Part shown: piece after piece, positions 27,084 to 60,950 of the stretch
Layout of the letters: each line of letters opens with the position of its first letter
How positions within the stretch are numbered: position 1 is the stretch's first letter
Assembly (NCBI RefSeq): GCF_988243305.1
Contig: NZ_OZ547136.1
Strand: one strand, 5' to 3'
Length of the DNA stretch: 64,000 bases
Notes under the pieces: generated by a model
The model's database searches: none
What the model was told of the DNA's origin: nothing
What the model saw: only the letters and a program-made list of their open reading frames with translations
Made by a program: the position numbers and the translations under genes

Positions 27084-27235
27084 GGTCATTCTCCTTTACG
27101 GTGATAACCGTCGCGTAAGCAAAAAATTGCCCCATTTTTTTGGATTCCTCAGCGACAACAACTGTCGATTTTTAGTAAATATCTATCCGGTACGAAGCCC
27201 GGCCTCTTGGTATGAATGATTGGTTTGAAGCAAAA

Positions 27236-27268
27236 AATAACCGACGCTGATGAAACGTCGGTTTTTAG
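27236..27268 (-). terminator. rho-independent terminator downstream of yeeY
   Basis: On the minus strand, hairpin ccgacgtttcatcagcgtcgg followed by TTATTTTTT. Confidence 0.55.
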
Positions 27269-27349
27269 TCATTTTTTGACAGCGGCGCATTGTGCCTAAA
27301 TGGGGGGGAAATGACAAGAGAATGAGAGGCTTGTCATAATAATTTTTCT

Positions 27350-28279
27350 TTAAATGGCTGATTTTCCGTCATCAGATTTTGCATAAACACCGGCGATCGC
27401 ACTATTTGCTAAAATTTCATCTCGCCACCAGCCGCTGGCAAGGCCTGCGGTCTGTTCGTTCCAGCCAATCCAGACGGGTTCAAAGAGAGTTTGGGCGACC
27501 ACTTTCTTCTCGATTAACGCGCCACTATCGAGAAACCGTTGCGCCAGATAACGGGGTAAATAGCCGCAGCCGAGGCCGCTAATTTGCAGCTCCAGCTTGG
27601 TTTTAAAATCGAAAACGGTAATGGCTTCTTGTTCGTCGAGAAGTTGTGAGGCCGTAGAAGCGCCTGCCTGCGCAGTATCCCCCACCACAATCGCCCGATA
27701 TCGCTTAATAATACGACGGTTTAACGGCTCTTCTTCCAGGGCTAACGGATGATGAGGCGCGACCGCAAAGACTTGTTCCAGATCGCCCAACCGTGAAAAA
27801 CCAAACTCACTGGAAGATGGTGGCTCATGCATCGCGCCAACAATAATATCCGCTCGCCCCTGAGTCAGGGCATCCCAGGAACCACCGAGTACGCCATTGA
27901 TAAACTTCAGGCGCGTCACGCTATGATGTTGATAAAAAGCTTCAATCAGTGGCGCAAGCAGAGAAAAAGGAAACGTGTCGTCCACGCCAATCACCAGCTC
28001 GTTTTCCCAGCCTTCATGCAGTTTGATCGCCTGCTTTTCCAGTTCTCGCACGGTATGCAGAACTTCCCGCCCTTTCTCTAATAACATTTTTCCGGTACGG
28101 GTGAATTTAGCGCGGTGACCGCTACGATCAAGCAATTGAATATTAAGGTCGCTTTCCAGCTTGTGAACGGTGTAACTCAGAGCGGACGGCGTCTTATAGA
28201 GTTTGGCCGACGCCGCCGCAAAACTGCCTTCTTTTTCTAAGGCATCGAGGATCATCAACACATCCAGCAGTGGTTTCAT
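27350..28279 (-). CDS. yeeY: LysR-family transcriptional regulator YeeY
   Basis: N-terminal HTH (MKPLLDVLMILDALEKEGSFAAASAKLYKTPSALSYTVHKLE) and LysR substrate-binding domain. Confidence 0.88.
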   Translation of the reverse strand: MKPLLDVLMILDALEKEGSFAAASAKLYKTPSALSYTVHKLESDLNIQLLDRSGHRAKFTRTGKMLLEKGREVLHTVRELEKQAIKLHEGWENELVIGVDDTFPFSLLAPLIEAFYQHHSVTRLKFINGVLGGSWDALTQGRADIIVGAMHEPPSSSEFGFSRLGDLEQVFAVAPHHPLALEEEPLNRRIIKRYRAIVVGDTAQAGASTASQLLDEQEAITVFDFKTKLELQISGLGCGYLPRYLAQRFLDSGALIEKKVVAQTLFEPVWIGWNEQTAGLASGWWRDEILANSAIAGVYAKSDDGKSAI

Positions 28280-28324
28280 ACACGCCCCCTTGCAGTGCAT
28301 GCGGCGTCCTGCTGGCGTGATCGT

Positions 28325-29149
28325 TTACTCCAGCGGCATTACCAGCGGATCGGGATACTGGTATTCAAATCCCAGTTCATTACAAATCCGACTGCCATCA
28401 ATAATCTTACCTTTGCCGCTGTCCAGACTATTTCTGAACTGCGGAGGCTCCAGCCCCAGTAAACGGGCCATCTGCGGATAGAAAACATTACGCGCAGGGT
28501 GAGCTGGCGCACATATATTATAGATGTGTCCGCCTTTAGGTGCCTGTAACAACAGAGTGATAGCGCCAATAACATCTTCTAAATGGACTAAATTAACACC
28601 ATGTTCACCATCAGGCGCGGTTTTTCCGGCAAAGAAGCGTCCGGGATGACGTCCCGGTCCGACCAGCCCCGCAAGACGCAGAATATCGACCGAAGTACCG
28701 GGTAAATTGTGCAGCCAGTCTTCGAGTTCTTCTAATACTCGTCCACTGTTGGTCACCGGATTACGCGGGGTGGTTTCTTTCACCGTGCCTTGCGCGTCGC
28801 CATAGACAGATGTTGAGCTGGTGAAAATAATGCGGGGAATACGATGGGCCAGCGCGCTATCCACTAACTCTTGTACCGCTTGTAAATAGAACTCATCGCC
28901 GGGGCCGCTACGACGTGCCGGAAGCGTAATGACCAGCGCGTCGGCATCCATCAGGGCATCCAGATCGTCAGAATCGCAAACTAGCTCAGGCTCCATGCGA
29001 AGCAGATAGCTATCAATGCCACTCATTCGGGCCGCTTCGACACCATCTTGTGTGGTTTTACTCCCGGTGACTTGCCAGCCTCGCGCTGAAAGTGACATCG
29101 CCAGCGGCATGCCTAACCACCCTAACCCGACAATTGCGACCTTTTTCAT
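28325..29149 (-). CDS. yeeZ: NAD-dependent epimerase/dehydratase-family protein YeeZ
   Basis: Rossmann motif VAIVGLGWLGMPLA at the N-terminus; 274 aa. Confidence 0.88.
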   Translation of the reverse strand: MKKVAIVGLGWLGMPLAMSLSARGWQVTGSKTTQDGVEAARMSGIDSYLLRMEPELVCDSDDLDALMDADALVITLPARRSGPGDEFYLQAVQELVDSALAHRIPRIIFTSSTSVYGDAQGTVKETTPRNPVTNSGRVLEELEDWLHNLPGTSVDILRLAGLVGPGRHPGRFFAGKTAPDGEHGVNLVHLEDVIGAITLLLQAPKGGHIYNICAPAHPARNVFYPQMARLLGLEPPQFRNSLDSGKGKIIDGSRICNELGFEYQYPDPLVMPLE

Positions 29150-29231
29150 CCGTTATCTCCTGATACACCTTAGATCTATAAGGCTACGCTAGCGTATCAA
29201 AACTGACAATTCATTCTATGAATGAATCTGT

Positions 29232-29486
29232 TCAATAATGATAACGACATGCTGCAATGAGCAGTGAATCGTCGGTAACCGCGTATACCAGACGGTGCTC
29301 CTCTGTAATGCGTCGGGACCAGAAACCTGACAAATTATGTTTCAGGGGTTCTGGCTTCCCCTTACCTTCAAATGGCGTTCTGCGGGTATCTTTGATAAGT
29401 TCATTGATCTTTTTAACAATTCGCTTATCTGTTTCCTGCCAGTACAGATAATCGTCCCATGATTCCTCAGACCAGATTAGTTTCAC
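29232..29486 (-). CDS. yoeB: YoeB toxin (ribosome-dependent mRNA interferase)
   Basis: 84-aa product [50 protein letters not shown]... Confidence 0.93.
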
Positions 29487-29734
29487 TCAATGATGTCCTT
29501 TTCCGTTCCTTTGCCAGATTTCAGGCTATCGATTGAGTCCATCAATCTCCGGGCGTTAGCGGGGGAGCGCAGTAGATAAGCCGTCTCTTCCAGCGAGTTG
29601 TATTCTTCGAGTGACATCAGAACACAAGCCTCTCCATTCTGACGAGTAATAAGGATCGGGGCATGATCTTCAACGGCTTTCATCATTGTTGCCGACAAAT
29701 TCTGACGCGCTTCGCTGTAGCTAATTGTACGCAT
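29483..29734 (-). CDS. yefM: YefM antitoxin
   Basis: 83-aa product [41 protein letters not shown]...; its stop overlaps the yoeB start. Confidence 0.93.
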
Positions 29735-30014
29735 GTCAATCTCCTCTTTTGTACAGCTCATTGTACAATGATGGGCGTTAATTAACTATTTATTAATTAG
29801 TTTGTAGATCAAGGTATTGTCAGTGAGACGAAAATCCAGGCTTCGCTATTTTTGGTGCCGTCAGCTTAGAGGACAGTCCTCTTAGCGCCCTCCTTTCCCC
29901 GCTCATTCATTAAACAAATCCATTGCCATAAAATATATAAAAAAGCCCTTGCTTTCTAACGTGAAAGTGGTTTAGGTTAAAGACATCAGTTGAATAAACA
30001 TTCACAGAGACTTT

Positions 30015-30065
30015 TATGACACGCGTTCAATTTAAACACCACCATCATCACCATCATCCTGACTA
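30015..30065 (+). CDS. hisL: his operon leader peptide
   Basis: atgacacgcgttcaatttaaacaccaccatcatcaccatcatcctgactag encodes MTRVQFKHHHHHHHPD with seven consecutive His codons. Confidence 0.9.
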
Positions 30066-30170
30066 GTCTTTCAGGCGATGTGTGCTGGAAGACATTCAGA
30101 TCTTCCAGTGGTGCATGAACGCATGAGAAAGCCCCCGGAAGATCACCTTCCGGGGGCTTTTTTATTGCGC
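30066..30170 (+). promoter_or_regulatory. his attenuator, including the intrinsic terminator hairpin
   Basis: gcccccggaagatcaccttccgggggc followed by TTTTTTATT immediately downstream of hisL. Confidence 0.9.
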
Positions 30171-41448: not shown

Positions 41449-42819
41449 TTACTTATTCAGTAACTCAAGGATAAGTTTTGTCTTTTCTTCCATCAGCGGC
41501 ACATCACCGCGCGATTCCACATTCAGGCGCACCACCGGTTCGGTGTTGGAGGAGCGCAGGTTAAAGCGCCAGTCGGCAAAGGTCATGCTGATGCCATCGG
41601 TACGATCCACCGCCAGCGCCTCGCGGCTAAAGTGCTGTTCGACGCGGTTAATCGCCTCAACGGGTTGCGCCAGTTTGCTGTTGATCTCACCGCTTGCCGG
41701 AAACGCTGCCATCCGGTCGCGCACCAGTTCGCCCAGCGTTTTTCCTTTCAGGCACACCAGTTCGGCTACCAGCAGCCACGGGATCATGCCGCTGTCGCAG
41801 TAAGCGAAATCACGGAAGTAATGGTGAGCGCTCATTTCGCCACCATAGATGGCGTCTTCCTTGCGCATACGTTCTTTAATAAAGGCGTGTCCGGTTTTCG
41901 ACATCACCGGAGTGCCGCCCGCGGCGGTCACCACATCAACGGTATTCCAGGAGAGACGTGGATCGTGGATGATCTTCGCGCCGGGATTTTTTTCGAGGAA
42001 CGCTTCTGCCAGCAGGCCGACAATGTAATAGCCCTCGATAAACTGCCCTTTTTCGTCAAACAGGAAGCAGCGGTCAAAATCGCCATCAAAGGCAATGCCC
42101 ATATCCGCTCCGTGTTTGATGACCGCATTGCGGGTGTCGTCGCGACATTCCGGCAGCAGCGGATTAGGAATACCGTTGGGGAAATTGCCGTCCGGCGTGT
42201 TGTGTACTTTGATTAATTCCACCGGTGCGCCGAGGGCTTTAAATCGGGCTTCAATGGCGTCCACCACCGGACCCGCCGCGCCGTTCCCGGAGTTAATCAC
42301 CAGCTTGAGCGACGTGAGGTTTTTGACGTTGATATAACCGAACAGGTGCTCAACGTAAGCGTCACGCAGATTGATTTGTTGATAGCGACCGCGTTTGGTT
42401 TCATCGACGGGAGGAAAGTCGTTGGCTTCTGCCAGACGCTGGACATCGCGTAGTCCGGTATCACCGCTGATCGGGCGAGCCCCCTCGCGAACCAGCTTCA
42501 TGCCGTTATAATCCATCGGATTATGGCTGGCGGTGACTTCAATGCCGCCATCCACGCCGAGATGGAACGTGGCGAAATAGATTTCTTCGGTGCCGGACAT
42601 GCCAATATCCAGCACATCGACGCCCGCATCCTGTAAACCTTTCGCCAGCGCCAGTTTTAAGGTTTCGCTGGTGAGGCGGGCATCACCGCCTAACACAATG
42701 GTTTTCGGTTTGAGAAATTCGCCATAGGCGCGACCAATGCGCCACGCAATATCTTCATTCAGTTCTTCGCCTAATTTCCCGCGAATATCATAGGCTTTAA
42801 AGCAGGTTAATTTTTTCAT
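41449..42819 (-). CDS. manB: phosphomannomutase (O-antigen cluster copy)
   Basis: 456-aa product [33 protein letters not shown]...; phosphohexomutase TASHNP active-site motif. Confidence 0.93.
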
Positions 42820-42843
42820 ATAAAAACCTTACCAATAATAAAA

Positions 42844-43602
42844 TTATTTATGCGCAAATAATTGCATTAGTTTTGATATTTTTCTGATAATGATAGCAAT
42901 TTTCCAATTTACATTATGGTTTTTCATAACTTCTACAATTTCCTTTGTACTTGATATCGCGTTATCAATTCTGGTACTTTCCCCACCCAATCTCATCTTT
43001 ACAAATACTTGAGGAACATAAATAACTTTAATATCATCACGTTTCAAAATCCTGACCATCTGATCATAGTCTGCAGCAATCCTATAGGATAAATCAAAAT
43101 ATCCATCGTCTTTATATAATTCCCTCCTCATATAGAAAGATGGATGCGGTGGTGCCCAGCCTAATGATAGCTTAGAACGTTTAAAAGGACCACTACGCCA
43201 GTATCGTTTGATTATATCAATTTGGTTTTTTTCGAAAAAAACCAAATCACCGTATACAACATCCGCTTTTGTCTCATGGAAACGGCTTACAATAGTTTCA
43301 ATAATATCAGGTCTTGCTAAAAGGTCATCAGAATGAACGAATCCAATAATATCTCCCGTAGATAAATTTATACCTTTATTTAAAGCATCATAGATACCGT
43401 TATCGCTTTCTGATAGACATTTGGTTACTCTTGTTGATACTTCGTTAATTAGTTTTAACGTATTATCTGTAGAACCACCATCAATAATTATATACTCTAT
43501 ATCTTTATAGGTTTGCAACTCTATTGACTCTAAAGTATCCCTTAAAGTCTTTTCACTATTATAAGTCACTGTAATAATACTGACTTTCATTTTAACATCC
43601 AA
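42844..43602 (-). CDS. family 2 glycosyltransferase (O-antigen)
   Basis: N-terminal VSIITVTYNSEKTL and DGGSTD motifs typical of GT2; 252 aa; low-GC sequence. Confidence 0.8.
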   Translation of the reverse strand: MDVKMKVSIITVTYNSEKTLRDTLESIELQTYKDIEYIIIDGGSTDNTLKLINEVSTRVTKCLSESDNGIYDALNKGINLSTGDIIGFVHSDDLLARPDIIETIVSRFHETKADVVYGDLVFFEKNQIDIIKRYWRSGPFKRSKLSLGWAPPHPSFYMRRELYKDDGYFDLSYRIAADYDQMVRILKRDDIKVIYVPQVFVKMRLGGESTRIDNAISSTKEIVEVMKNHNVNWKIAIIIRKISKLMQLFAHK

Positions 43603-43673
43603 TAATAATCATAATTAAATAACGTCAGTACCGCATTACGAATAATAATGTTGCATTAGTATCCAGCATCATT

Positions 43674-45074
43674 TTAGATTCTAACAACATCATCTTCATC
43701 CAAGTAAACACCTGAACGTACCTCAATAATCTCCAAAGGGATCTTTCCTGGATTCTCAATAAAATGAGGTACACCTATTGGTATATAAGTTGATTCATTT
43801 TCAGAAACAAGAAATATTTCATCTTCATAATGGACTTTTGCTGTTCCAGAAACAACAATCCAATGCTCAGTACGATGGTAATGAATCTGTTTAGCAGTTT
43901 TATGTCCAGGATGAATAACGACATGTTTAACCTCAAATCGAGATCCTTCCGCTATAGAGTCATGACTGCCCCATGGCCTAAATATTTCACGATGCTGCAG
44001 ATATTCCGTACGGTTATTAACTTTAAGTTTTTCTACAATATTTTTTACCTGTTGAACTTTATCTTTATGCGCAACGAGAATAGCATCTTTAGTTTCAACA
44101 ACTACTAAATCTTTAACTCCTACTACACCAATTAATCTATGTTGTGAGTAAAGATAACTGTCAGAAGAATCATGAATTAATACATCTCCTCTAATTGCAT
44201 TTCCACTTTTATCTTTTCTGCTAATTTCCCATAATGCAGACCAAGAACCAACATCGCTCCAGTGGGCATTTAATGGAACTACCACAGCCTCTGTTGTTTT
44301 CTCCATAACAGCGTAATCAATGGATTCTTCAGGGCAACAACTAAATGAGTCATTATCTATACGGATAAAATCAAGATCTTGTGTAGAGGACTTCAATGCT
44401 TGTTGGCATATTTTTAGTATGTCTGGTCTAAATTTATTCAACTCATCAATAAACACAGAAGCCCTAAACATGAATATTCCACTATTCCAAAGATAATCTC
44501 CATCTTCAAGATATTTTTTGGCCACATCTAGCTCAGGCTTTTCAACAAAAGCAGAAACTTTAAAACCATATTCATTTAAATTTTCTCCGGTTTTTATATA
44601 GCCATATCCAGTTTCGGGTTTGGTTGGCACAATACCAAAAGTTACCAGCTTACCTTCCTCTGCAAATTCTTTTGCAGCCAATATTGACGATATAAAGCGC
44701 TTTTGGTCTTGTATTTCATGATCGGCTGCTAGTACAAGCAGTATTGGATCCTCACCTGATGAAATCGCTTTAAGAGCAGCAAGCGCAACTGCGGGGGCAG
44801 TATTACGACCTACCGGCTCTAGTAAAATGCCACTATTCGCTAAATTTACATTACGCATCTGTTCTGCAACGATAAAACGATGAACTTCATTACAAATAAC
44901 CAGAGCAGGACGATGTTCAACCCCTTCAAGCCTTCTTAAGGTCTCTTGTAGCATAGTCAAACGACTAGTTAACGACAGGAATTGCTTCGGATATAGTGTT
45001 CGAGAAAGTGGCCACAATCTAGTTCCAGAACCACCGGCCATTACAACAGGAAGTAGCATATAAATAACCTTCAC
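43674..45074 (-). CDS. manC: mannose-1-phosphate guanylyltransferase
   Basis: N-terminal nucleotidyltransferase domain (LPVVMAGGSGTRLWPLSR) and C-terminal cupin domain; start overlaps the gmm stop (ATGA). Confidence 0.93.
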   Translation of the reverse strand: MKVIYMLLPVVMAGGSGTRLWPLSRTLYPKQFLSLTSRLTMLQETLRRLEGVEHRPALVICNEVHRFIVAEQMRNVNLANSGILLEPVGRNTAPAVALAALKAISSGEDPILLVLAADHEIQDQKRFISSILAAKEFAEEGKLVTFGIVPTKPETGYGYIKTGENLNEYGFKVSAFVEKPELDVAKKYLEDGDYLWNSGIFMFRASVFIDELNKFRPDILKICQQALKSSTQDLDFIRIDNDSFSCCPEESIDYAVMEKTTEAVVVPLNAHWSDVGSWSALWEISRKDKSGNAIRGDVLIHDSSDSYLYSQHRLIGVVGVKDLVVVETKDAILVAHKDKVQQVKNIVEKLKVNNRTEYLQHREIFRPWGSHDSIAEGSRFEVKHVVIHPGHKTAKQIHYHRTEHWIVVSGTAKVHYEDEIFLVSENESTYIPIGVPHFIENPGKIPLEIIEVRSGVYLDEDDVVRI

Positions 45075-45526
45075 TTAAAATAATTTTTTGTGTACTGATG
45101 AACTGAGGAATTAGCTAACAATTCGGCTATATCGAACCAATTGTAAGTACTATGTTGTAGTGTTGGATAGTTAATTTGATGTGGCATCAAACTAATCTCA
45201 TATCCGTGTACGACATAATGAGTTGAAAAACAAGTCCCAGAAAAATTGTCGCTGTAGAAATGTTCATAAATCCCAAGAAATTTTGCTTCATTAATGCTAA
45301 TTTGAACACCCAATTCTTCAAAAGTAACTCTTTTGAATGCGTTCTCGAAAGACTCATCTTTAAGAATCCGTCCCCCCGGCACAAACCAATAATTTTGTGC
45401 TGGACGATTAAGGCGCTGACCAAGCAGCGCCTTACCATCTTCGTTTCTTATAATAAGGTCTATCGAGATTAGTGGAGTATGTTCAACTATTGATTTAAAT
45501 AACTCTGTTTCTAATCTCTTGTTCAA
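45071..45526 (-). CDS. gmm: GDP-mannose mannosyl hydrolase (NUDIX)
   Basis: NUDIX box GGRILKDESFENAFKRVTFEELG; 151 aa. Confidence 0.88.
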   Translation of the reverse strand: MNKRLETELFKSIVEHTPLISIDLIIRNEDGKALLGQRLNRPAQNYWFVPGGRILKDESFENAFKRVTFEELGVQISINEAKFLGIYEHFYSDNFSGTCFSTHYVVHGYEISLMPHQINYPTLQHSTYNWFDIAELLANSSVHQYTKNYFK

Positions 45527-45528
45527 TA

Positions 45529-46494
45529 TTAACTCCTAAATGAGTCAAGATTATTTATAAACCATTTATATGTTAATTCTAGTCCTTGTTTTAAATTATA
45601 ACGATATTTCCAGCCCAAATTCTCAAGGCGTGTAACATCCATAAGTTTACGAGGCGAACCATCTGGTTTTGTTATATCAAAAACAATTTTTCCATCATAG
45701 CCAACAACTAAAGCCATTGTTTCTGCCATTTCACGTATGGAACAATCAACACCAGTACCTACGTTAATATGAGATAACATTGGTTGAGTATTTTTTTTAT
45801 AAATTTCATCATCAAGCTCCATCACATATACTGATGCAGCTGCCATATCATCAACATATAAAAACTCGCGTTTTGGAGTTCCCGTTCCCCAGACAACCAC
45901 TTCATTTAAACCAAGTTCCTTTGCTTCATGAAAACGCCGCATAAGCGCTGGAATTACATGTGAGTTATTGGGATGAAAATTATCATTCATACCATATAAG
46001 TTAGTAGGCATTACACTGCGATAATCACATCCATATTGGCGATTATAAGATTCACATAGCTTTATACCTGCTATTTTGGAAATAGCATAAGGCTCATTAG
46101 TAGGCTCAAGAGTTCCCGTCAAAAGTGCAGATTCTTTCATTGGCTGTTCTGCAAACTTTGGATAGATACAACTTGACCCTAAGAATAATAGTTTCTTTAT
46201 GCCCGCTTTATAAGATGAGTGAATAATATTGCTTTCAATGAGAAGGTTCTGATAAATAAATTCAGCTGGAAAAGTGTTATTAGCATGAATTCCTCCTACT
46301 TTTGCTGCTGCAAGGTAAACCTGATCTATTCTCTCTTGCTCAAAAAAACATTCAACATCCTTTTGAACTGTCAAATCGAGTTCTTTGTGAGTTTTGACAA
46401 TTAACTCAACATCATTACGTGCTAATAATTGACGACAAATAGCAGAACCAACCATCCCACGATGTCCAGCCACAAAAATTCGCTTCTTGGTCAT
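45529..46494 (-). CDS. fcl: GDP-L-fucose synthase
   Basis: 321-aa product [23 protein letters not shown]... Confidence 0.93.
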
Positions 46495-46497
46495 ACT

Positions 46498-47619
46498 TTA
46501 ACGCTCCAAAGAGACTGCCACGTCAAAACCATGGCTTTTAAGAAGTGCATGCTGTTTAGCTTTTTCTAAATCACTAGCCACCATTTCTGCACACATTTCT
46601 TCAACTGTAATCTCTGGCTCCCAACCCAAGACATTTTTTGCTTTTGTTGGATCACCAAGAAGAGTTTCAACTTCTGCTGGTCGAAAATAACGAGGGTCAA
46701 CGCGAACAATAACATCACCAATATTAACACCAACGGCGCAATCTGATGTTTTATTTACAACCATTGCAACCTCATCAACACCAGTACCGGAAAACTCAAG
46801 TTCAAGTCCAACTTCTTTAGCAGACATACGGACAAATTCACGTACAGATATTTGTTTGCCAGTGGCAATAACAAAGTCTTCTGGCTGGTCTTGTTGAAGC
46901 ATCATCCATTGCATACGAACATAATCTTTCGCATGCCCCCAATCACGTAAAGAATCCATGTTGCCAAGATATAAGCATTTTTCTATTCCCTGCGAAATAT
47001 TAGCTATAGCACGTGTGATTTTACGTGTTACAAACGTTTCCCCACGACGTGGGGATTCATGATTGAACAAAATACCGTTGCATGCATACATTCCATAAGA
47101 CTCACGATAGTTTACAGTGATCCAATATGCATACAGTTTAGCTACGGCATAAGGTGAACGAGGATAGAACGGCGTTGCCTCTTTTTGTGGAACTTCCTGA
47201 ACTAATCCATACAATTCAGAGGTTGACGCCTGATAAAATCGGGTTTTTTTTTCTAATCCCAAAAAACGAATAGCTTCCAATAATCGTAAAGTACCTATAG
47301 CATCAACATCAGCTGTATATTCTGGGGATTCGAAGGAAACAGCTACGTGACTCATTGCTCCGAGGTTGTAAACTTCATCAGGTTGAACTTCAGATAATAT
47401 ACGAGTCAAATTAGAAGTATCTGTTAAGTCACCATAATGAAGGTGTAATTTTAAATTAATATTATGGGGATCTTGGTATATATGGTCAATACGTCCAGTA
47501 TTAAAAATAGAAGAACGTCGTTTTATTCCATGAACCTCGTAACCTTTATTTAGTAGAAACTCTGCCAAATATGAACCATCTTGACCAGTAATGCCAGTAA
47601 TTAATGCTTTCTTTGTCAT
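46498..47619 (-). CDS. gmd: GDP-mannose 4,6-dehydratase
   Basis: 373-aa product [37 protein letters not shown]... Confidence 0.95.
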
Positions 47620-47629
47620 AAAATTATTC

Positions 47630-48664
47630 CTACAGTAGTTTCTTGTAAATATCGATAGTTTTGTCAGTACATTTTTTCCAAGAAAAACGTTGTGCTTGAG
47701 ATAAACCTTTCTTAATAATTTGATTTCGATTTCTATTTATAAATGATATACCATCAATAAGGTTGCTTATACTTAACTCATCCATCAAATAACCGGCGTC
47801 ACCTGCAACCTCTGGTATTGAGGAGTGATTATACGCAATGAATGGGCATCCTGCCCTCATTGCTTCTAAAAGAGGAATACCAAATCCTTCATAACTTGAC
47901 GGATAAATAAGAGAATGAGCTTGATTAAATTTTAGATTCAACTCTTGCTCAGTTAAATATGGATAATGAATATATCGATATGGTATATATTTATCAAGTA
48001 AAAATTTCTCAGCCTTTCCCAAAGGGCCTCCACCTACAATATATAGTTTGAACCCCTCTAATTTGTTTATTGCTTCAACTGCAAGTTGAAAGTTTTTATA
48101 TGCTTTTCTCGAACCAATAAAAAGCATGAAATTATCATCATCGTTATAATTAACGTTTTTTAATTCATAAAAATTATCAGACACCCCATTGTGAATGATT
48201 TCGATTTTACTTTCAGGTACTGGACAATACCTCAACAAATCATTGGCAGTATTTTCTGAAATGCAAATTATTTTATCACTGTTTTTTATAGCATTGTACT
48301 TCTGATGACAATGAACGTATTTACGTAAACCTGACATATATTTTTCATATGTAAAGTCATGTACTGTTGTTATGTTTTTATTTTTTTTGCCCTTACTAAA
48401 TCTATAATAACTAGAATGTAATAGAGAGTTTTCAGGAATATCAACAGCTCGATACCTTTCAAGAAAGCGAGGATATAGATTAATATAACGTCCAGGTTGT
48501 CGCACATCTTCACTTATAAATTGACAGCCTGTATTCTCATAGTTTAATATCGTATATTCAATATTTGTGGCTTTTATCGCTTTTATTATTTGATTATAAT
48601 AAACAGAAATGCCACCGTATGACTGGAGATTATATATAATACCATCCAAATATAACATAGGCAC
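47630..48664 (-). CDS. GT-B fold glycosyltransferase (GT1/GT4-like; O-antigen)
   Basis: C-terminal EX7E-type motif region [23 protein letters not shown]; 344 aa. Confidence 0.8.
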
Positions 48665-48673
48665 CTTTTATAT

Positions 48674-49687
48674 TTAATTGTATCCATCAGGATTTAGCGT
48701 ATGCCATTTCCACGCAGAAGAAAGCATTTCGGTCAAATCTCGCCTAGCCTTCCAGTCCAGTTCTTTTTCAGCTTTGGAAACATCCGCCCAACATTCTGCA
48801 ACATCGCCGCTTCGGTTAGGGCCAAAACTATAATTAATATTTTTCCCAATAATTGATTGAAATGTTTTTATTACTTCTAATACAGAATATCCTCTACCCG
48901 TACCTAAGTTATATATTTTATAATTTCCTCCTTTGCCAAACATTTTAAATGCTGAAATATGCCCCTCAGCTAAATCATTTACATGAATATAATCTCTGAT
49001 ACCAGTCCCATCAGGCGTTGGATAGTCATGACCATAAATAGTAAGCGCAGGTAATTTACCTAAAGCAACATTCATCATATATGGAACTAAGTTAGCAGGA
49101 GTACCTCTGGGATTTTCACCTATTAACCCAGACTCATGCGCCCCCACTGGATTAAAATATCGCAAAATAATCACATCTAATTTAGGGTTTGCCAGAGAAG
49201 CATCTTTTAATATAACCTCGGAGTAATATTTACTGGTCCCGTATGGATTCGTTGTTTCACCTATACGACATTTTTCATTGATAGGTATCGTTTCTGGAAG
49301 ACCGTACACCGTAGCAGATGAGCTAAAGATAATTTTATTTACATGAAAGATCTTCATTAACTCTAACAAATTTAAAAGCCCAACAATATTATTCATATAA
49401 TAACGTATAGGACTTTGAACTGATTCTGAGACAGACTTAAGGCCTGCAAAATGTAATACTTTAGAGAATGTGTGATTCGTGAATATAGTCTTTAATTCTT
49501 TTTTGTCCAATAAATCTACCTTATATGCTCTGATTTTCTTACCACTAAGCTTTGAAATGACTTTGATGATATCTTCTGTAGAATTAGAAAAATTATCTAT
49601 GATGACAACGTCTTCATTCTGCTCCAATAATGACAGAACAGTATGGGACCCAATATATCCAGCTCCACCCGTAACTAATATTGTCAT
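48674..49687 (-). CDS. UDP-hexose 4-epimerase (GalE family)
   Basis: N-terminal ILVTGGAGYIGSH Rossmann motif and a YGTSK catalytic motif; 337 aa; low GC, so cluster-specific rather than housekeeping galE. Confidence 0.82.
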   Translation of the reverse strand: MTILVTGGAGYIGSHTVLSLLEQNEDVVIIDNFSNSTEDIIKVISKLSGKKIRAYKVDLLDKKELKTIFTNHTFSKVLHFAGLKSVSESVQSPIRYYMNNIVGLLNLLELMKIFHVNKIIFSSSATVYGLPETIPINEKCRIGETTNPYGTSKYYSEVILKDASLANPKLDVIILRYFNPVGAHESGLIGENPRGTPANLVPYMMNVALGKLPALTIYGHDYPTPDGTGIRDYIHVNDLAEGHISAFKMFGKGGNYKIYNLGTGRGYSVLEVIKTFQSIIGKNINYSFGPNRSGDVAECWADVSKAEKELDWKARRDLTEMLSSAWKWHTLNPDGYN

Positions 49688-49696
49688 AAAAACACC

Positions 49697-51019
49697 TTAT
49701 TTGAATTTAAAAAAAACTATTTGCATCGATAATCTCAAGCATATGTATGCCATAAAGAACATACCTAATTCAAATATCATAGAAGAAAACTCTGAGCGTT
49801 GGAAATTGATAGATTGGGAAAGAAAAACAAGATAAAGAAAATAGTTGCTCCCAATTAACCTTTCCATTATATATGAATAACCACATAAAATGGCAGGAAA
49901 TATAATTACACCATAATAATTATAATTAATAAAAGCTTCTGTAAAAGGAGTAAATGCATATCCCATCATAAACTCTTGACTTGGCAAATAAACTTCCTTT
50001 GCAAATTGAATAGCTAATGTGTCTGGCTTTAATCCCATAAATAATTCTTTTGGTATAAAGTTTACAATGAACTGAAGATAGGATATACCAAAAAATTGAG
50101 TCTGATAATGTATCGAAGAATAATATTGAAGTGTAGATATAGGATAAATAAATTCACCCAAAGCATTCAATAATCTTATGCTTGATTCGACATTATAATC
50201 TGAACGATATATCCCAAAAAGTATAATCGTTGATACAAATAGAATACTGAACAACGCTACTTTTAATGGTATCTTAAATTTAGCTTTATAAAGTGATAGC
50301 AATACAGCCATAATAAAAGATAAAGCAATTTCTCGTCTTGAACCTACCAGCATTAAAGTATAAAAATATAAAAGCACAGGTATGCTGTATATTACGAAAC
50401 TATAATTTGTGAGACTTTTTTTTACTATCTTTAAATCAAGTAAAATCCAAAAATAAGCAATAACCACATATTTCAGATACCATCCACTTTGACTTACCGA
50501 ATTAATTAACTCTAGGCGAGTACTTTCGCCCAAAGCATTCAGAGAAAGATTTCTTGATTGATATAGAAAAAATAATGATATTAACCATGCTATGCATGAT
50601 GGAATAAATAGATTATAGTTATTGTCATAGTTATATTGTTTGTTTAAAAGAAATATATTGATACCGTGAGGCCTAATCAAACTAATCGATGCAACTATAC
50701 ACCAAACAGCAACACAATATAAGAATGAAGTGTTGATTATATTATTTTCAACATTAAATACATTAACACCAAAAAAATAATACAACAAAAAAGACACAAA
50801 AAAATAAAAAGGCGATAATATTATAAATATTCCATCAAACCATACCCACATTCGATTATATACAAAAAAAAGAATTGCAATTGTAAATATTACAGATAAA
50901 AACCAAATTAGGATAGCATCAATTTCAACTTTGACAGAAGTGCTCAATACAGCAATCATTATCAACCCAATAAAGCCATAAAATTGAGCCAATACCAGTT
51001 TGTATTGTTTATAAATCAT
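49697..51019 (-). CDS. wzy: O-antigen polymerase
   Basis: 440-aa highly hydrophobic polytopic protein with very low GC, positioned among the glycosyltransferases. Confidence 0.75.
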   Translation of the reverse strand: MIYKQYKLVLAQFYGFIGLIMIAVLSTSVKVEIDAILIWFLSVIFTIAILFFVYNRMWVWFDGIFIILSPFYFFVSFLLYYFFGVNVFNVENNIINTSFLYCVAVWCIVASISLIRPHGINIFLLNKQYNYDNNYNLFIPSCIAWLISLFFLYQSRNLSLNALGESTRLELINSVSQSGWYLKYVVIAYFWILLDLKIVKKSLTNYSFVIYSIPVLLYFYTLMLVGSRREIALSFIMAVLLSLYKAKFKIPLKVALFSILFVSTIILFGIYRSDYNVESSIRLLNALGEFIYPISTLQYYSSIHYQTQFFGISYLQFIVNFIPKELFMGLKPDTLAIQFAKEVYLPSQEFMMGYAFTPFTEAFINYNYYGVIIFPAILCGYSYIMERLIGSNYFLYLVFLSQSINFQRSEFSSMIFELGMFFMAYICLRLSMQIVFFKFK

Positions 51020-51854
51020 ATTTTAACAATCCCGTCCAGAAACCGATTAATCTGTACATATATAATTTTTTTTGTTTTTTTAAAACGATACCAAAAAATG
51101 ATTTTACTGTGATCCTGAAAATTTCCAATAGTAATAAATAACGAGATTTCACTAAATACTTCTTTATCACGACACCATATCCAACTGCATATTTTCTGTA
51201 TTTTTCTGGTATCCCTTCACAATATAAATCATTATCGTGATAAACTCCAAATATAGGTTGAAAACATACTCTAAACCCAAGAGATTTCAGCCGAAAAAAT
51301 AACTCCGTTTCTTCGGATCCACCGAATAAAGTACCAACACCTAACCTTTCATCAAAATATATATTATCGAGTTTATGAGTAAAAATAAAAGTACCCACAC
51401 TTAGTGACGATTTAATTATTTGATTATAACCCATTTCCTTTTTAGTTTTAGGATAAACTCTATTGGCATAAGATTTCATTGTTTGAAAATCTAATACAGG
51501 AACTGAAAGAACGGTTTCTTTTTTGATATTTGATTGAATCACCTTCTCAAAAAAATCAGGAGCATAAAAAGCATCATCATCACAGAACCCAATAACATTA
51601 CCACTGCATAGTTTAAGCCCTTGATTACGAGCAGTTGAAAGTGGTACTTTATTTGATTTAACCAACTTGTATTTTATATTTTTTGCGTGTTTTAAAAATA
51701 ATTGCTCAATTATGATATCATCAGTCTGATCAATAAATATAATTTCTAGGTTTTTGTACGTACTGCTAGCTATGCTATTTAGCAGTCGTTCAATTTCTTT
51801 ATCCCTTCCACCTTGAGTTGTGCCTATCAAACTAATTTTATAAAAGTTATTCAT
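51009..51854 (-). CDS. family 2 glycosyltransferase (O-antigen)
   Basis: GT2-like N-terminal domain with a DDD motif (GFCDDDAFY); 281 aa. Confidence 0.75.
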   Translation of the reverse strand: MNNFYKISLIGTTQGGRDKEIERLLNSIASSTYKNLEIIFIDQTDDIIIEQLFLKHAKNIKYKLVKSNKVPLSTARNQGLKLCSGNVIGFCDDDAFYAPDFFEKVIQSNIKKETVLSVPVLDFQTMKSYANRVYPKTKKEMGYNQIIKSSLSVGTFIFTHKLDNIYFDERLGVGTLFGGSEETELFFRLKSLGFRVCFQPIFGVYHDNDLYCEGIPEKYRKYAVGYGVVIKKYLVKSRYLLLLEIFRITVKSFFGIVLKKQKKLYMYRLIGFWTGLLKYDL

Positions 51855-51855
51855 A

Positions 51856-52776
51856 TTAATATCCTTTTTTTAAGATTGAATTAATCTTTATTTTACAATA
51901 ATAAGCAAATTTTCTAAGAAAAACACCATTTATATATTTAATCTTTACTCCTAACTTAGAAAAAATAATAAAATACACCTTAAAATAATAACAAATAGCA
52001 TTAAGAAAACGATGACTTGATTGCGGAAACAAAACCATCCCTAGCTCATCTTTATCGAGAATAATCCCCTGTTTTTTTAAATTACCAATGGCAATAGATA
52101 TGTGAATATCTGCTTGTATATGCTTTTTTATATTCGATATTTGATTTCCGTGATTTCGATAATAAAGCAAGGGTATATTTATATTACAGAATTTTCCGTA
52201 GTTTGCTAATCTACTCCAAAACTCATAATCTTCAGCATATTGGTAGCGTGGCTTATAATATAGGCATTCTTTTTTTATAATGCTGCTTCTCATCATTACA
52301 GTTGGATGAGCAAAACAACTGCCCACCAACAATCCTATTTTACAGGCTTCGTCTGAGTTAGGCATTTTTATAATTTTTCCGCTATTAACAGCTGACTCAA
52401 AAACTTTGATATTAGTTCCACAACACGCTATTTTTTGATCTGCATCCATTATTTCAACTTGTAATCTCAACCTTTCTCTGTGAGCAATATCATCAGCATC
52501 CATTCTAGCAATATACACTCCCGTAGCCATGTCTAATAATTCATTTAAAGTAGCTACTATCCCTTTATTTTCTCTATGCTTAATTTTGAATATCGCGGGA
52601 TATTTATTTTTATATTCATCAAGTATCTTTTGTGTACCATCCTGCGAGCCATCATTGATGATGATAATTTCAAATATTTTATATGTTTGTTCCAATATAC
52701 TGTCAATGCATGCGCCTAAGTATTTTTCAGCATTATATACCGGTATTATAACGGATACTTTGTTTTTATTAATCAT
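51856..52776 (-). CDS. family 2 glycosyltransferase (O-antigen)
   Basis: N-terminus KVSVIIPVYNAEKYLGACIDSILEQTY and DGSQDGT, a classic GT2 signature; 306 aa. Confidence 0.85.
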   Translation of the reverse strand: MINKNKVSVIIPVYNAEKYLGACIDSILEQTYKIFEIIIINDGSQDGTQKILDEYKNKYPAIFKIKHRENKGIVATLNELLDMATGVYIARMDADDIAHRERLRLQVEIMDADQKIACCGTNIKVFESAVNSGKIIKMPNSDEACKIGLLVGSCFAHPTVMMRSSIIKKECLYYKPRYQYAEDYEFWSRLANYGKFCNINIPLLYYRNHGNQISNIKKHIQADIHISIAIGNLKKQGIILDKDELGMVLFPQSSHRFLNAICYYFKVYFIIFSKLGVKIKYINGVFLRKFAYYCKIKINSILKKGY

Positions 52777-52782
52777 AATATA

Positions 52783-54054
52783 TCATACTTTGTTTTTATT
52801 AAGCAGATAACAGATCGTTACTATTAAGGAGAACATATATAATGCTTGAGATATTATATACGCTTTAAAAACATAAGAAATTTGAGCATTTTCGACGTAG
52901 CATAACGAATACTTACTTAATATACAATATACAGACCATTGTAACACTTCTAACACTATATATTCTTTTACGAATGCTTTGCTAATCAGCAAATAACCAA
53001 GCACCCATGCAATTATCTTAAAAAAATCTCCAATTAGTTGATAAACTATAACATCAACAATAGGAACGAACTCGTGTGTAAATAGAATATTTACTATCAA
53101 ACCGCGAAATGTATACATCAAGACTGAAGATATACAAACTAACGGAACCAAATACAAATAACAAACTTTTATTTCATTAAGCAATTCTGAACGGTTAGAT
53201 GCACTTGAAAACCTTGGAAAGAAATATACCCCCAATGTAGTCGTAATTAACATCAAATAGACTGAACTTATTCTATTAACAGCATCCCACAACCCAGCAT
53301 ACTCAATATTTATTGATGTTATGATTTCATTTCTCACATATAACGTACTAACTGGCACTAATATAGCTGAAGTGACTGTCATTAAAGAAAAAATTATGAT
53401 CCGTTTTAATATTGAAATATCAATTCGATTGCAATTATTAACATAGTATTCTCTTAAATATTTTTTTGAGTAAAAAAAAGTCACAAAAAACAATATAGCT
53501 TGATTTGAAACTACAGCAATCAATGCTCCTCTCATACCAAAAGAGATTGTCAATATAAAGGCGTATATTGCAGATATTAAACTCGATATGATATTAATCC
53601 ATATATAATTTTTAATAAATGACAATCCATTTAACATAGAAAGAATTATATTATTCCATGCATATAAAATAACACTCCCTCCCAAGAAATAAATTGCGAT
53701 GCTTACTTCATCATTAGAATTGAAAAATTGTTCGATAATTATATTTTTAAAGATAATTATGATAACAGCGGTTATAAATCCCATTATAGTAGACAAATAA
53801 ATTGCATTAATCCAAAAACTCCAGATTTTTTCCTTATTACTATTCTTATACTCTGACGTATACTTAACAATACTCGTTGAAATAGCTTGTGATGGCGCAA
53901 CCATAGCTATATTAAGGATATTTTGGATTTGGCCAATAAGTGCATATCCAGACGTACCTAAATATATTGCGAATACTTTATTAAGTCCAAGTAGAGTTGC
54001 TATTTTGACAAATACAGAAAGGCCATTAAGAATAAAGACATTATATACTTTCAC
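52783..54054 (-). CDS. wzx: O-antigen flippase
   Basis: 423-aa polytopic protein of the polysaccharide-transport (MOP/PST) type, first gene of the low-GC block. Confidence 0.8.
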   Translation of the reverse strand: MKVYNVFILNGLSVFVKIATLLGLNKVFAIYLGTSGYALIGQIQNILNIAMVAPSQAISTSIVKYTSEYKNSNKEKIWSFWINAIYLSTIMGFITAVIIIIFKNIIIEQFFNSNDEVSIAIYFLGGSVILYAWNNIILSMLNGLSFIKNYIWINIISSLISAIYAFILTISFGMRGALIAVVSNQAILFFVTFFYSKKYLREYYVNNCNRIDISILKRIIIFSLMTVTSAILVPVSTLYVRNEIITSINIEYAGLWDAVNRISSVYLMLITTTLGVYFFPRFSSASNRSELLNEIKVCYLYLVPLVCISSVLMYTFRGLIVNILFTHEFVPIVDVIVYQLIGDFFKIIAWVLGYLLISKAFVKEYIVLEVLQWSVYCILSKYSLCYVENAQISYVFKAYIISQALYMFSLIVTICYLLNKNKV

Positions 54055-54122: not shown

Positions 54123-54134
54123 CACGCTACCGCC
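54123..54134 (-). promoter_or_regulatory. ops element (RfaH-dependent antitermination) within the JUMPstart region upstream of the O-antigen operon
   Basis: Top strand cacgctaccgcc equals GGCGGTAGCGTG on the transcribed strand, in the galF-wzx intergenic region. Confidence 0.8.
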
Positions 54135-54407
54135 CCTGGCTATACAGCTACCAGAGCACTGCGTGTGTGTCTACAATGTAACGAGCGTTTCATGCTCGCA
54201 ATAAACAAAAAACCAAAAGCTAAATTATCTTACTAATCAGCTCTGAAAACAAGGAAATGTGTAAAAAAAGTCCTATTGCTGACTTGTTATTATCCCGAAT
54301 ATTTATAAATCAATAATAGCAGGAAGACTCGCAACAAGTTACTTTGCCTGCTAATCTTCACAACTATTACAGTCTTTTCGCATCTGTTGCATCCGATTCG
54401 ATTTTCA

Positions 54408-60654: not shown

Positions 60655-60950
<296 letters not shown>

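Follow-up and report, generated by a model that had tools for sequence, protein, structure and literature searches.

A K-12-type yefM-yoeB toxin-antitoxin operon carried in an accessory cassette at a core intergenic site of Escherichia coli

Introduction

The closest described counterpart of the locus analyzed here is the yefM-yoeB toxin-antitoxin (TA) operon of Escherichia coli K-12 (b2017/b4539; PDB 2A6Q, 4V8X, 6OXA), one of the best-characterized TA systems, for which there are structures in isolation, in complex and on the ribosome. Experiments have shown that K-12 YoeB cleaves mRNA in a ribosome-dependent manner and inhibits growth (PMC6821326, PMC7167474). Like other interferases of the RelE superfamily, YoeB cleaves A-site mRNA on the ribosome; Glu46 contacts the 2'-OH and Arg65 and His83 contact the scissile phosphate, and once cleavage has occurred the 3'-phosphate is held by Arg59, Arg65 and Tyr84 (PMC6821326). 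The antitoxin YefM is proteolytically labile and a substrate of Lon, and the physiological role of the chromosomal operon is unsettled, with no fitness effect at 42 °C (PMC7167474). Primer extension, DNase I footprinting and mutagenesis established that the L palindrome of the operator covers the -10 box of the yefM-yoeB promoter, pyy, and that the S repeat surrounds the start site (Kedzierska et al., PMC1802561; PMC7730913).

A more distant relative is Axe-Txe of Enterococcus faecium plasmid pRUM, which belongs to the same Phd/YefM and YoeB/Txe families and is likened to yefM-yoeB here by published description, the sequences being distantly related. The two operons share their -10 box and have L and S repeats with a TGTACA core, whereas the Axe-Txe promoter, pat, has the -35 element TTGCTT, is much stronger than pyy, places its operator otherwise relative to the -10 box, is repressed less completely and has a second promoter beside it (PMC7730913). 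In the wider RelE superfamily, RelBE differs in its antitoxin, since RelB has a ribbon-helix-helix fold rather than the Phd/YefM fold. TA systems in general are accessory and unevenly spread among E. coli phylogroups (PMC7167474), a point for which that paper also cites Fiedoruk 2015 and Ramisetty & Santhosh 2016.

Here we describe a yefM-yoeB pair in a window of 64,000 nucleotides, the whole stretch of chromosomal DNA that was analyzed, and compare its coding sequence, control region and genomic setting with those of K-12 and of other E. coli genomes.

Results

Two co-oriented reading frames on the minus strand exactly fill positions 29232-29734, whose two limits are the stop codon of yoeB and the start codon of yefM. 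The gene for the predicted antitoxin and autorepressor, yefM (29483-29734; 83 aa, ATG at 29734), lies directly upstream of yoeB (29232-29486; 84 aa, GTG start), the predicted gene for a ribosome-dependent mRNA endonuclease toxin, and the antitoxin-first order 29734..29483 followed by 29486..29232 describes one operon. The TGA stop codon of yefM and the GTG start codon of yoeB overlap by 4 nt (GTGA, 29483-29486, minus strand), identical to the overlap annotated in K-12 and an arrangement typical of the translational-coupling type. YoeB matches the Pfam family YoeB_toxin (PF06769; 146.3 bits against a cut-off of 27, E=2.8e-43, profile positions 1-80/80) and the NCBIfam Txe/YoeB equivalog TIGR02116 (132.8 bits, cut-off 51.8); YefM matches PhdYeFM_antitox (PF02604; 96.8 bits, cut-off 29.8, E=6.1e-28) and the equivalog NF008499 (186.6 bits, cut-off 121, positions 1-83/83). 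These reading frames, their overlap and the family matches are far beyond chance. YoeB also weakly matches models for ParE, RelE and YafQ, its RelE and YafQ scores falling below the curated cut-offs.

All 84 residues of YoeB equal those of PDB 2A6Q chain E (100%), and the same sequence is that of 2A6R, 2A6S, 4V8X, 6OXA, 6OXI and 6OTR, of which 4V8X and 6OXA are ribosome structures. Because the identity to a solved chain extends over 84/84 residues, the RelE-like microbial RNase fold can be assigned to YoeB. Glu46, Lys49, Arg59, Glu63, Arg65, His83 and Tyr84 are all present in the sequence. Likewise, 83/83 residues of YefM equal residues 4-86 of 2A6Q chain A (100%). The DNA over 29100-30020 is 100% identical in the dog isolate Z1323PEC0010, on whose sequence RefSeq annotates WP_000767829.1 and WP_001259255.1, the K-12 protein accessions.

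The initial annotation had called a type II yefM-yoeB pair at this position, with overlapping stop and start and both genes intact, and had proposed alignment to K-12 as the check. Each of these calls held: by DNA alignment yoeB equals that of K-12 MG1655 and yefM carries one synonymous change, at 29516, with no frameshift, stop, amino-acid change or other inactivating mutation, and the Pfam and NCBIfam matches together with the identity to 2A6Q support the type II assignment. The likeness to K-12 extends to the 4-nt overlap and to the site (yeeZ / yoeB-yefM / hisL), as well as to the Shine-Dalgarno (SD) sequence, both promoter hexamers and the operator with its L and S repeats. The differences are confined to DNA: apart from the change at 29516, they comprise two promoter-region SNPs, at 29757 and 29774, and a few farther upstream, five in all over the 166 bp upstream of yefM. 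We regard the pair as almost certainly the chromosomal yefM-yoeB type II TA operon, complete and, as judged by sequence, indistinguishable in function from that of K-12. The system is thus an already known and ordinary one, and its presence in the window is in itself of small import, a matter of correct annotation.

The pair lies between two blocks of core genes. On one side, yeeZ (28325-29149) is co-oriented with yoeB and followed by yeeY (27350-28300); on the other, upstream of yefM, are hisL (30017-30067), an Rfam match to the His leader RNA (30042-30165, 131.6 bits) and hisGDCBHAFI, with hisG from 30212. This placement agrees with the initial annotation, which had set the pair next to the his operon, in a core region and outside the island. 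Its further description of the pair as conserved and core stands only for the site: a 921-bp stretch spanning both flanks is matched in 5416/5426 complete E. coli genomes and fully covered in 4211 of them, whereas the TA coding DNA is found in 4216/5426 (77.7%), so that the pair itself is accessory and short of the presence in essentially all genomes that would define an E. coli core gene.

Comparison with TA-less genomes delimits an accessory cassette of 652 bp (29227-29878, 44.6% GC, between flanking genes of 51-58% GC). In O157:H7 F8798 and BL21(DE3), identity to the window ends after 29226 and restarts at 29879, and ~210 bp of unrelated sequence replaces the cassette. The junctions are given as the exact shared prefix and suffix, a MAFFT alignment of the cassette to the unrelated replacement being spurious, and were also mapped against E. 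albertii, E. coli E69, Escherichia sp. E1V33 and MOD1-EC7003. The replacement holds two REP-like repeats in inverted orientation, GCCTGATGCGCTCCGCTTATYAGTCCTAC and GTAGACCAGATAAGGCATTCACGCCGCATCCGGCA, which resemble the REP consensus.

To place these two states, hisL loci were located by their histidine-codon run in species-representative genomes, giving at least 120 Enterobacterales loci; among the 120 listed, which do not include Salmonella or the chromosomes of E. fergusonii and E. marmotae, tblastn found no match to YefM or YoeB, so that the pair is absent from the syntenic site in the sister species and genera listed. By the same method, YeeZ lies beside hisL in nearly all listed loci whose upstream sequence is long enough, over a range of genera that includes Citrobacter, Yersinia and Proteus. 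In four listed Escherichia loci (E. albertii NBRC 107761, E. coli E69, E1V33 and MOD1-EC7003), the TA pair is missing and the REP-bearing spacer closely resembles its O157:H7 and BL21 counterparts. Parsimony makes this TA-less allele the ancestral one in the genus, the cassette having taken the place of a portion of the spacer within E. coli.

Large plasmids from Salmonella enterica, Citrobacter and E. marmotae carry relatives of the cassette, with 82-85% DNA identity over approximately 29231-29798 of the window, and an Enterobacter relative has 78% DNA identity. For example, the conjugative plasmid pIncFII.1 of S. Milwaukee (NZ_CP030176.1) encodes a YoeB identical at 78/84 residues and a YefM identical at 79/83, with 85% DNA identity and with the gene order, the overlap and the L palindrome TCATTGTACAATGA conserved. 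Its neighborhood is unrelated by contrast, its S repeat is degenerate (TGAACA), and homology is confined to the stretch between the stop codon of yoeB and a point ~64 bp upstream of yefM. A phage origin was also considered and set aside: YoeB gave eight tblastn matches against 50,697 phage records, all below 60% identity, and no close phage relative was among them.

Given its presence in 77.7% of genomes, its absence from the site in the outgroups listed and its plasmid relatives at 82-85% identity, the pair is, on the sequence evidence, a small acquired accessory module in a core intergenic site rather than an ancestral core gene. A rival reading takes the word "conserved" at face value, with the pair as ancestral Escherichia core DNA that was deleted in ~22% of E. 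coli. Presence is indeed the majority state in E. coli, and the pair occupies one fixed site between core genes, with no integrase, IS or direct repeats bordering it. A simple deletion, however, would not leave the TA-less allele with ~210 bp of different, REP-like sequence, and that allele is also found in E. albertii and two other Escherichia species, whereas all other genera listed join yeeZ directly to the his promoter. Together with the low GC content of the cassette relative to its flanking genes and its plasmid-borne relatives, these observations make ancestral core status highly unlikely.

Searches at the cassette ends for flanking direct repeats, and for an integrase or IS, found none. 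As a separate observation, the right junction falls within a palindrome at 29864-29886, which reads GCTTAGAGGAC-A-GTCCTCTTAGC in the window and has a perfect form, GCTAAGAGGAC-A-GTCCTCTTAGC, in K-12; only its right arm, CTCTTAGC, is common to TA-less genomes.

We also considered whether the locus might be a remnant that is decaying or has been silenced, with toxin or promoter inactive in the strain from which the window comes. Chromosomal TA systems often erode, and damaged or altered forms of this one exist: IS2 splits yoeB in an ETEC isolate, IS1 is inserted upstream of the promoter, between it and hisL, in strain FCI17, and 418 genomes carry a YoeB R65L allele in which the phosphate-contacting arginine is replaced. 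The pair in the window has neither the IS2 nor the IS1 insertion and none of the T19A, R65L and G74D changes found in such alleles; R65 is intact, and both proteins are 100% identical to ones that have been crystallized and are experimentally active. The two promoter-region SNPs relative to K-12, which might point to silencing, fall at 29757 (-3) and 29774 (-20), between the defined hexamers and palindromes, and leave the -35 and -10 boxes, transcription start site (TSS), L, S and SD sequence unchanged. We consider a remnant of this kind extremely improbable.

In eight other sampled E. coli alleles, synonymous and non-synonymous codon changes number 30:2 in yefM and 27:6 in yoeB, counts that are not independent of one another, and the excess of synonymous changes suggests purifying selection.

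YoeB WP_000767819.1, found in E. coli LS4 and DFK.1, combines R65L (CGT to CTT) with T19A, and its partner YefM carries G74D. A 41-mer specific for the R65L codon is present in 418/5426 complete genomes, ~10% of those that are TA-positive, including EC958 (ST131). Because Arg65 contacts the scissile phosphate, this allele may encode an attenuated toxin. In the literature searched, no earlier description of R65L YoeB from ST131 was found, which is not proof of novelty.

The coding strand upstream of yefM reads ...AATAGTTAATTAACGCCCATCATTGTACAATGAGCTGTACAAAAGAGGAGATTGACATG. On the minus strand, promoter pyy comprises a -35 box TAGTTA (29783-29788), a 17-bp linker and a -10 box TACAAT (29765..29760) inside L, followed by a start-site G at 29754 inside S; hexamers and spacing are as published. 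The L palindrome TCATTGTACAATGA occupies 29758-29771 and the S repeat core TGTACA 29750-29755, the whole operator therefore covering 29750-29771, and a ribosome-binding site GAGGAG (29741-29746) ends 6 nt before the yefM ATG. These elements were located by hand and confirmed against the published promoter and experimentally defined operator (PMC1802561, PMC7730913). The centers of L and S are 12 bp apart and the two repeats overlap the -10 box and the TSS, as would be expected of an autoregulatory operator; 8/8 other E. coli alleles, chosen to span the range of identity, retain the two TGTACA cores at unchanged spacing. With a generic sigma-70 and terminator scan, no promoter was called for yefM and no terminator downstream of yoeB; pyy was missed because its -35 box TAGTTA matches the consensus at 3/6 positions.

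The position of the TSS also bears on the length of yefM, which some early annotations gave as a 92-aa frame from an ATG at 29761: although the ORF finder extends the frame to that codon and the codon is conserved in K-12, it sits at -7 to -5, upstream of the TSS mapped by primer extension, the overexpressed protein starts at the +21 ATG, which is 29734 (PMC1802561), the GAGGAG sequence serves that same ATG and RefSeq annotates an 83-aa product, so that there is next to no chance that the longer frame is the real gene.

Discussion

As the proteins are identical to ones studied experimentally, the mechanism worked out in K-12 can be carried over to the pair in the window, and we infer from this identity that the operon is active in its strain. 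The weak promoter pyy would transcribe yefM and then yoeB, whose GTGA overlap is of a kind that could couple their translation. A YefM dimer would bind one YoeB, masking the toxin active site in a YefM2-YoeB heterotrimer. YefM and, more tightly, YefM2-YoeB would then bind the TGTACA palindromes, first L and then S, and occupancy of both would hide the -10 box along with the start site and so silence the operon. Once the labile YefM has been degraded by Lon, for example upon Lon overproduction or at 42 °C, free YoeB would be expected to enter the ribosomal A site and cut the mRNA codon there by means of Glu46, Arg65, His83 and Tyr84.

More broadly, location on the chromosome between core genes is not equivalent to core status. 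At this site the pair is a 652-bp presence/absence polymorphism with precise junctions, and its accessory status fits the general view of type II TA systems as part of the accessory genome (PMC7167474). The strain, with its O125-type O-antigen cluster and CP4-44-like island, carries a K-12-type, apparently functional allele.

The cassette ends 77 bp upstream of the start codon of yeeZ, a gene for an SDR oxidoreductase of unknown role. Just 3' of yoeB, at 29198-29228 on the minus strand, an AT-rich hairpin, AUUCAUUC-AUA-GAAUGAAU followed by UUGUCAGUUUUG, has a predicted RNA fold of -13.2 kcal/mol (z = -2.63); most of it lies in sequence common to TA-less genomes. The terminator scan, which needs at least three G-C pairs, did not call this hairpin, which is AT-rich; it might act as a weak terminator separating yoeB from yeeZ. 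Since a 77-bp gap and this weak hairpin are all that separates two co-oriented genes, yeeZ might in TA-positive strains be transcribed in part by read-through from the promoter that YefM-YoeB autoregulates, an idea that we hold to be unlikely. If true, it would couple a core metabolic gene to TA status, for instance to derepression by Lon or heat, and would do so in 78% of E. coli and not in O157:H7 or BL21. A related idea, likewise unlikely, is that the cassette, which lies ~11 kb from the O-antigen cluster, hitch-hikes with recombinational O-antigen replacement or biases it.

Additional features of the window

A CP4-44-like island, presumably the one to which the initial annotation referred, occupies approximately 1-17400 of the window. 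It contains YfjI, a GTPase, Ag43 (~6830-9955), an 840-aa hypothetical protein, IrmA, the IS102/isrC RNA (6612-6815), an antirestriction gene and yeeS/yeeT, as well as a second TA pair, the type IV cbeA/cbtA, at ~15.8-16.7 kb. Membership of yefM-yoeB in this island was considered and rejected: the pair lies at ~29 kb and is separated from the end of the island, near 17.4 kb, by eight core genes (yeeX/tmaR to yeeZ). An IS621 (IS110-family) transposase gene at 18888-19868 (minus strand) interrupts yeeA (FUSC family), leaving fragments at ~18275-18790 and 19932-20612; the IS621 and yeeA assignments derive from the annotation of a 98.9% identical locus.

The pair is likewise outside the O-antigen cluster, which runs from ~41449 to 54054 on the minus strand, with JUMPstart at 54123-54161, and is 99.7% identical to a cluster with O125-family wzx and wzy. 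Positions 39001-64000 are covered to at least 80% in 7/5426 genomes, which points to an O-antigen locus of a rare serogroup.

In the his control region, a one-base deletion at 29979-29981 shortens a run of A residues that follows the his -10 box and precedes the start site (TAGGTTAAAG versus TAGGTTAAAAG). The deletion lies just 3' of the his promoter sequence TAGGTT at 29973-29978. The AAAA form of the run occurs in 14/14 other Escherichia loci checked by pattern search and in both aligned Citrobacter sequences, and the AAA form occurs in 119/5426 E. coli genomes.

Further Rfam matches were seen: an STnc240 sRNA match at 27230-27304 (minus strand), between plaP/yoeI and yeeY, and two tandem Rfam matches to naRNA4 (REP325-type) at 60718-60789 and 60815-60885 (plus strand), between wcaK and wzxC.
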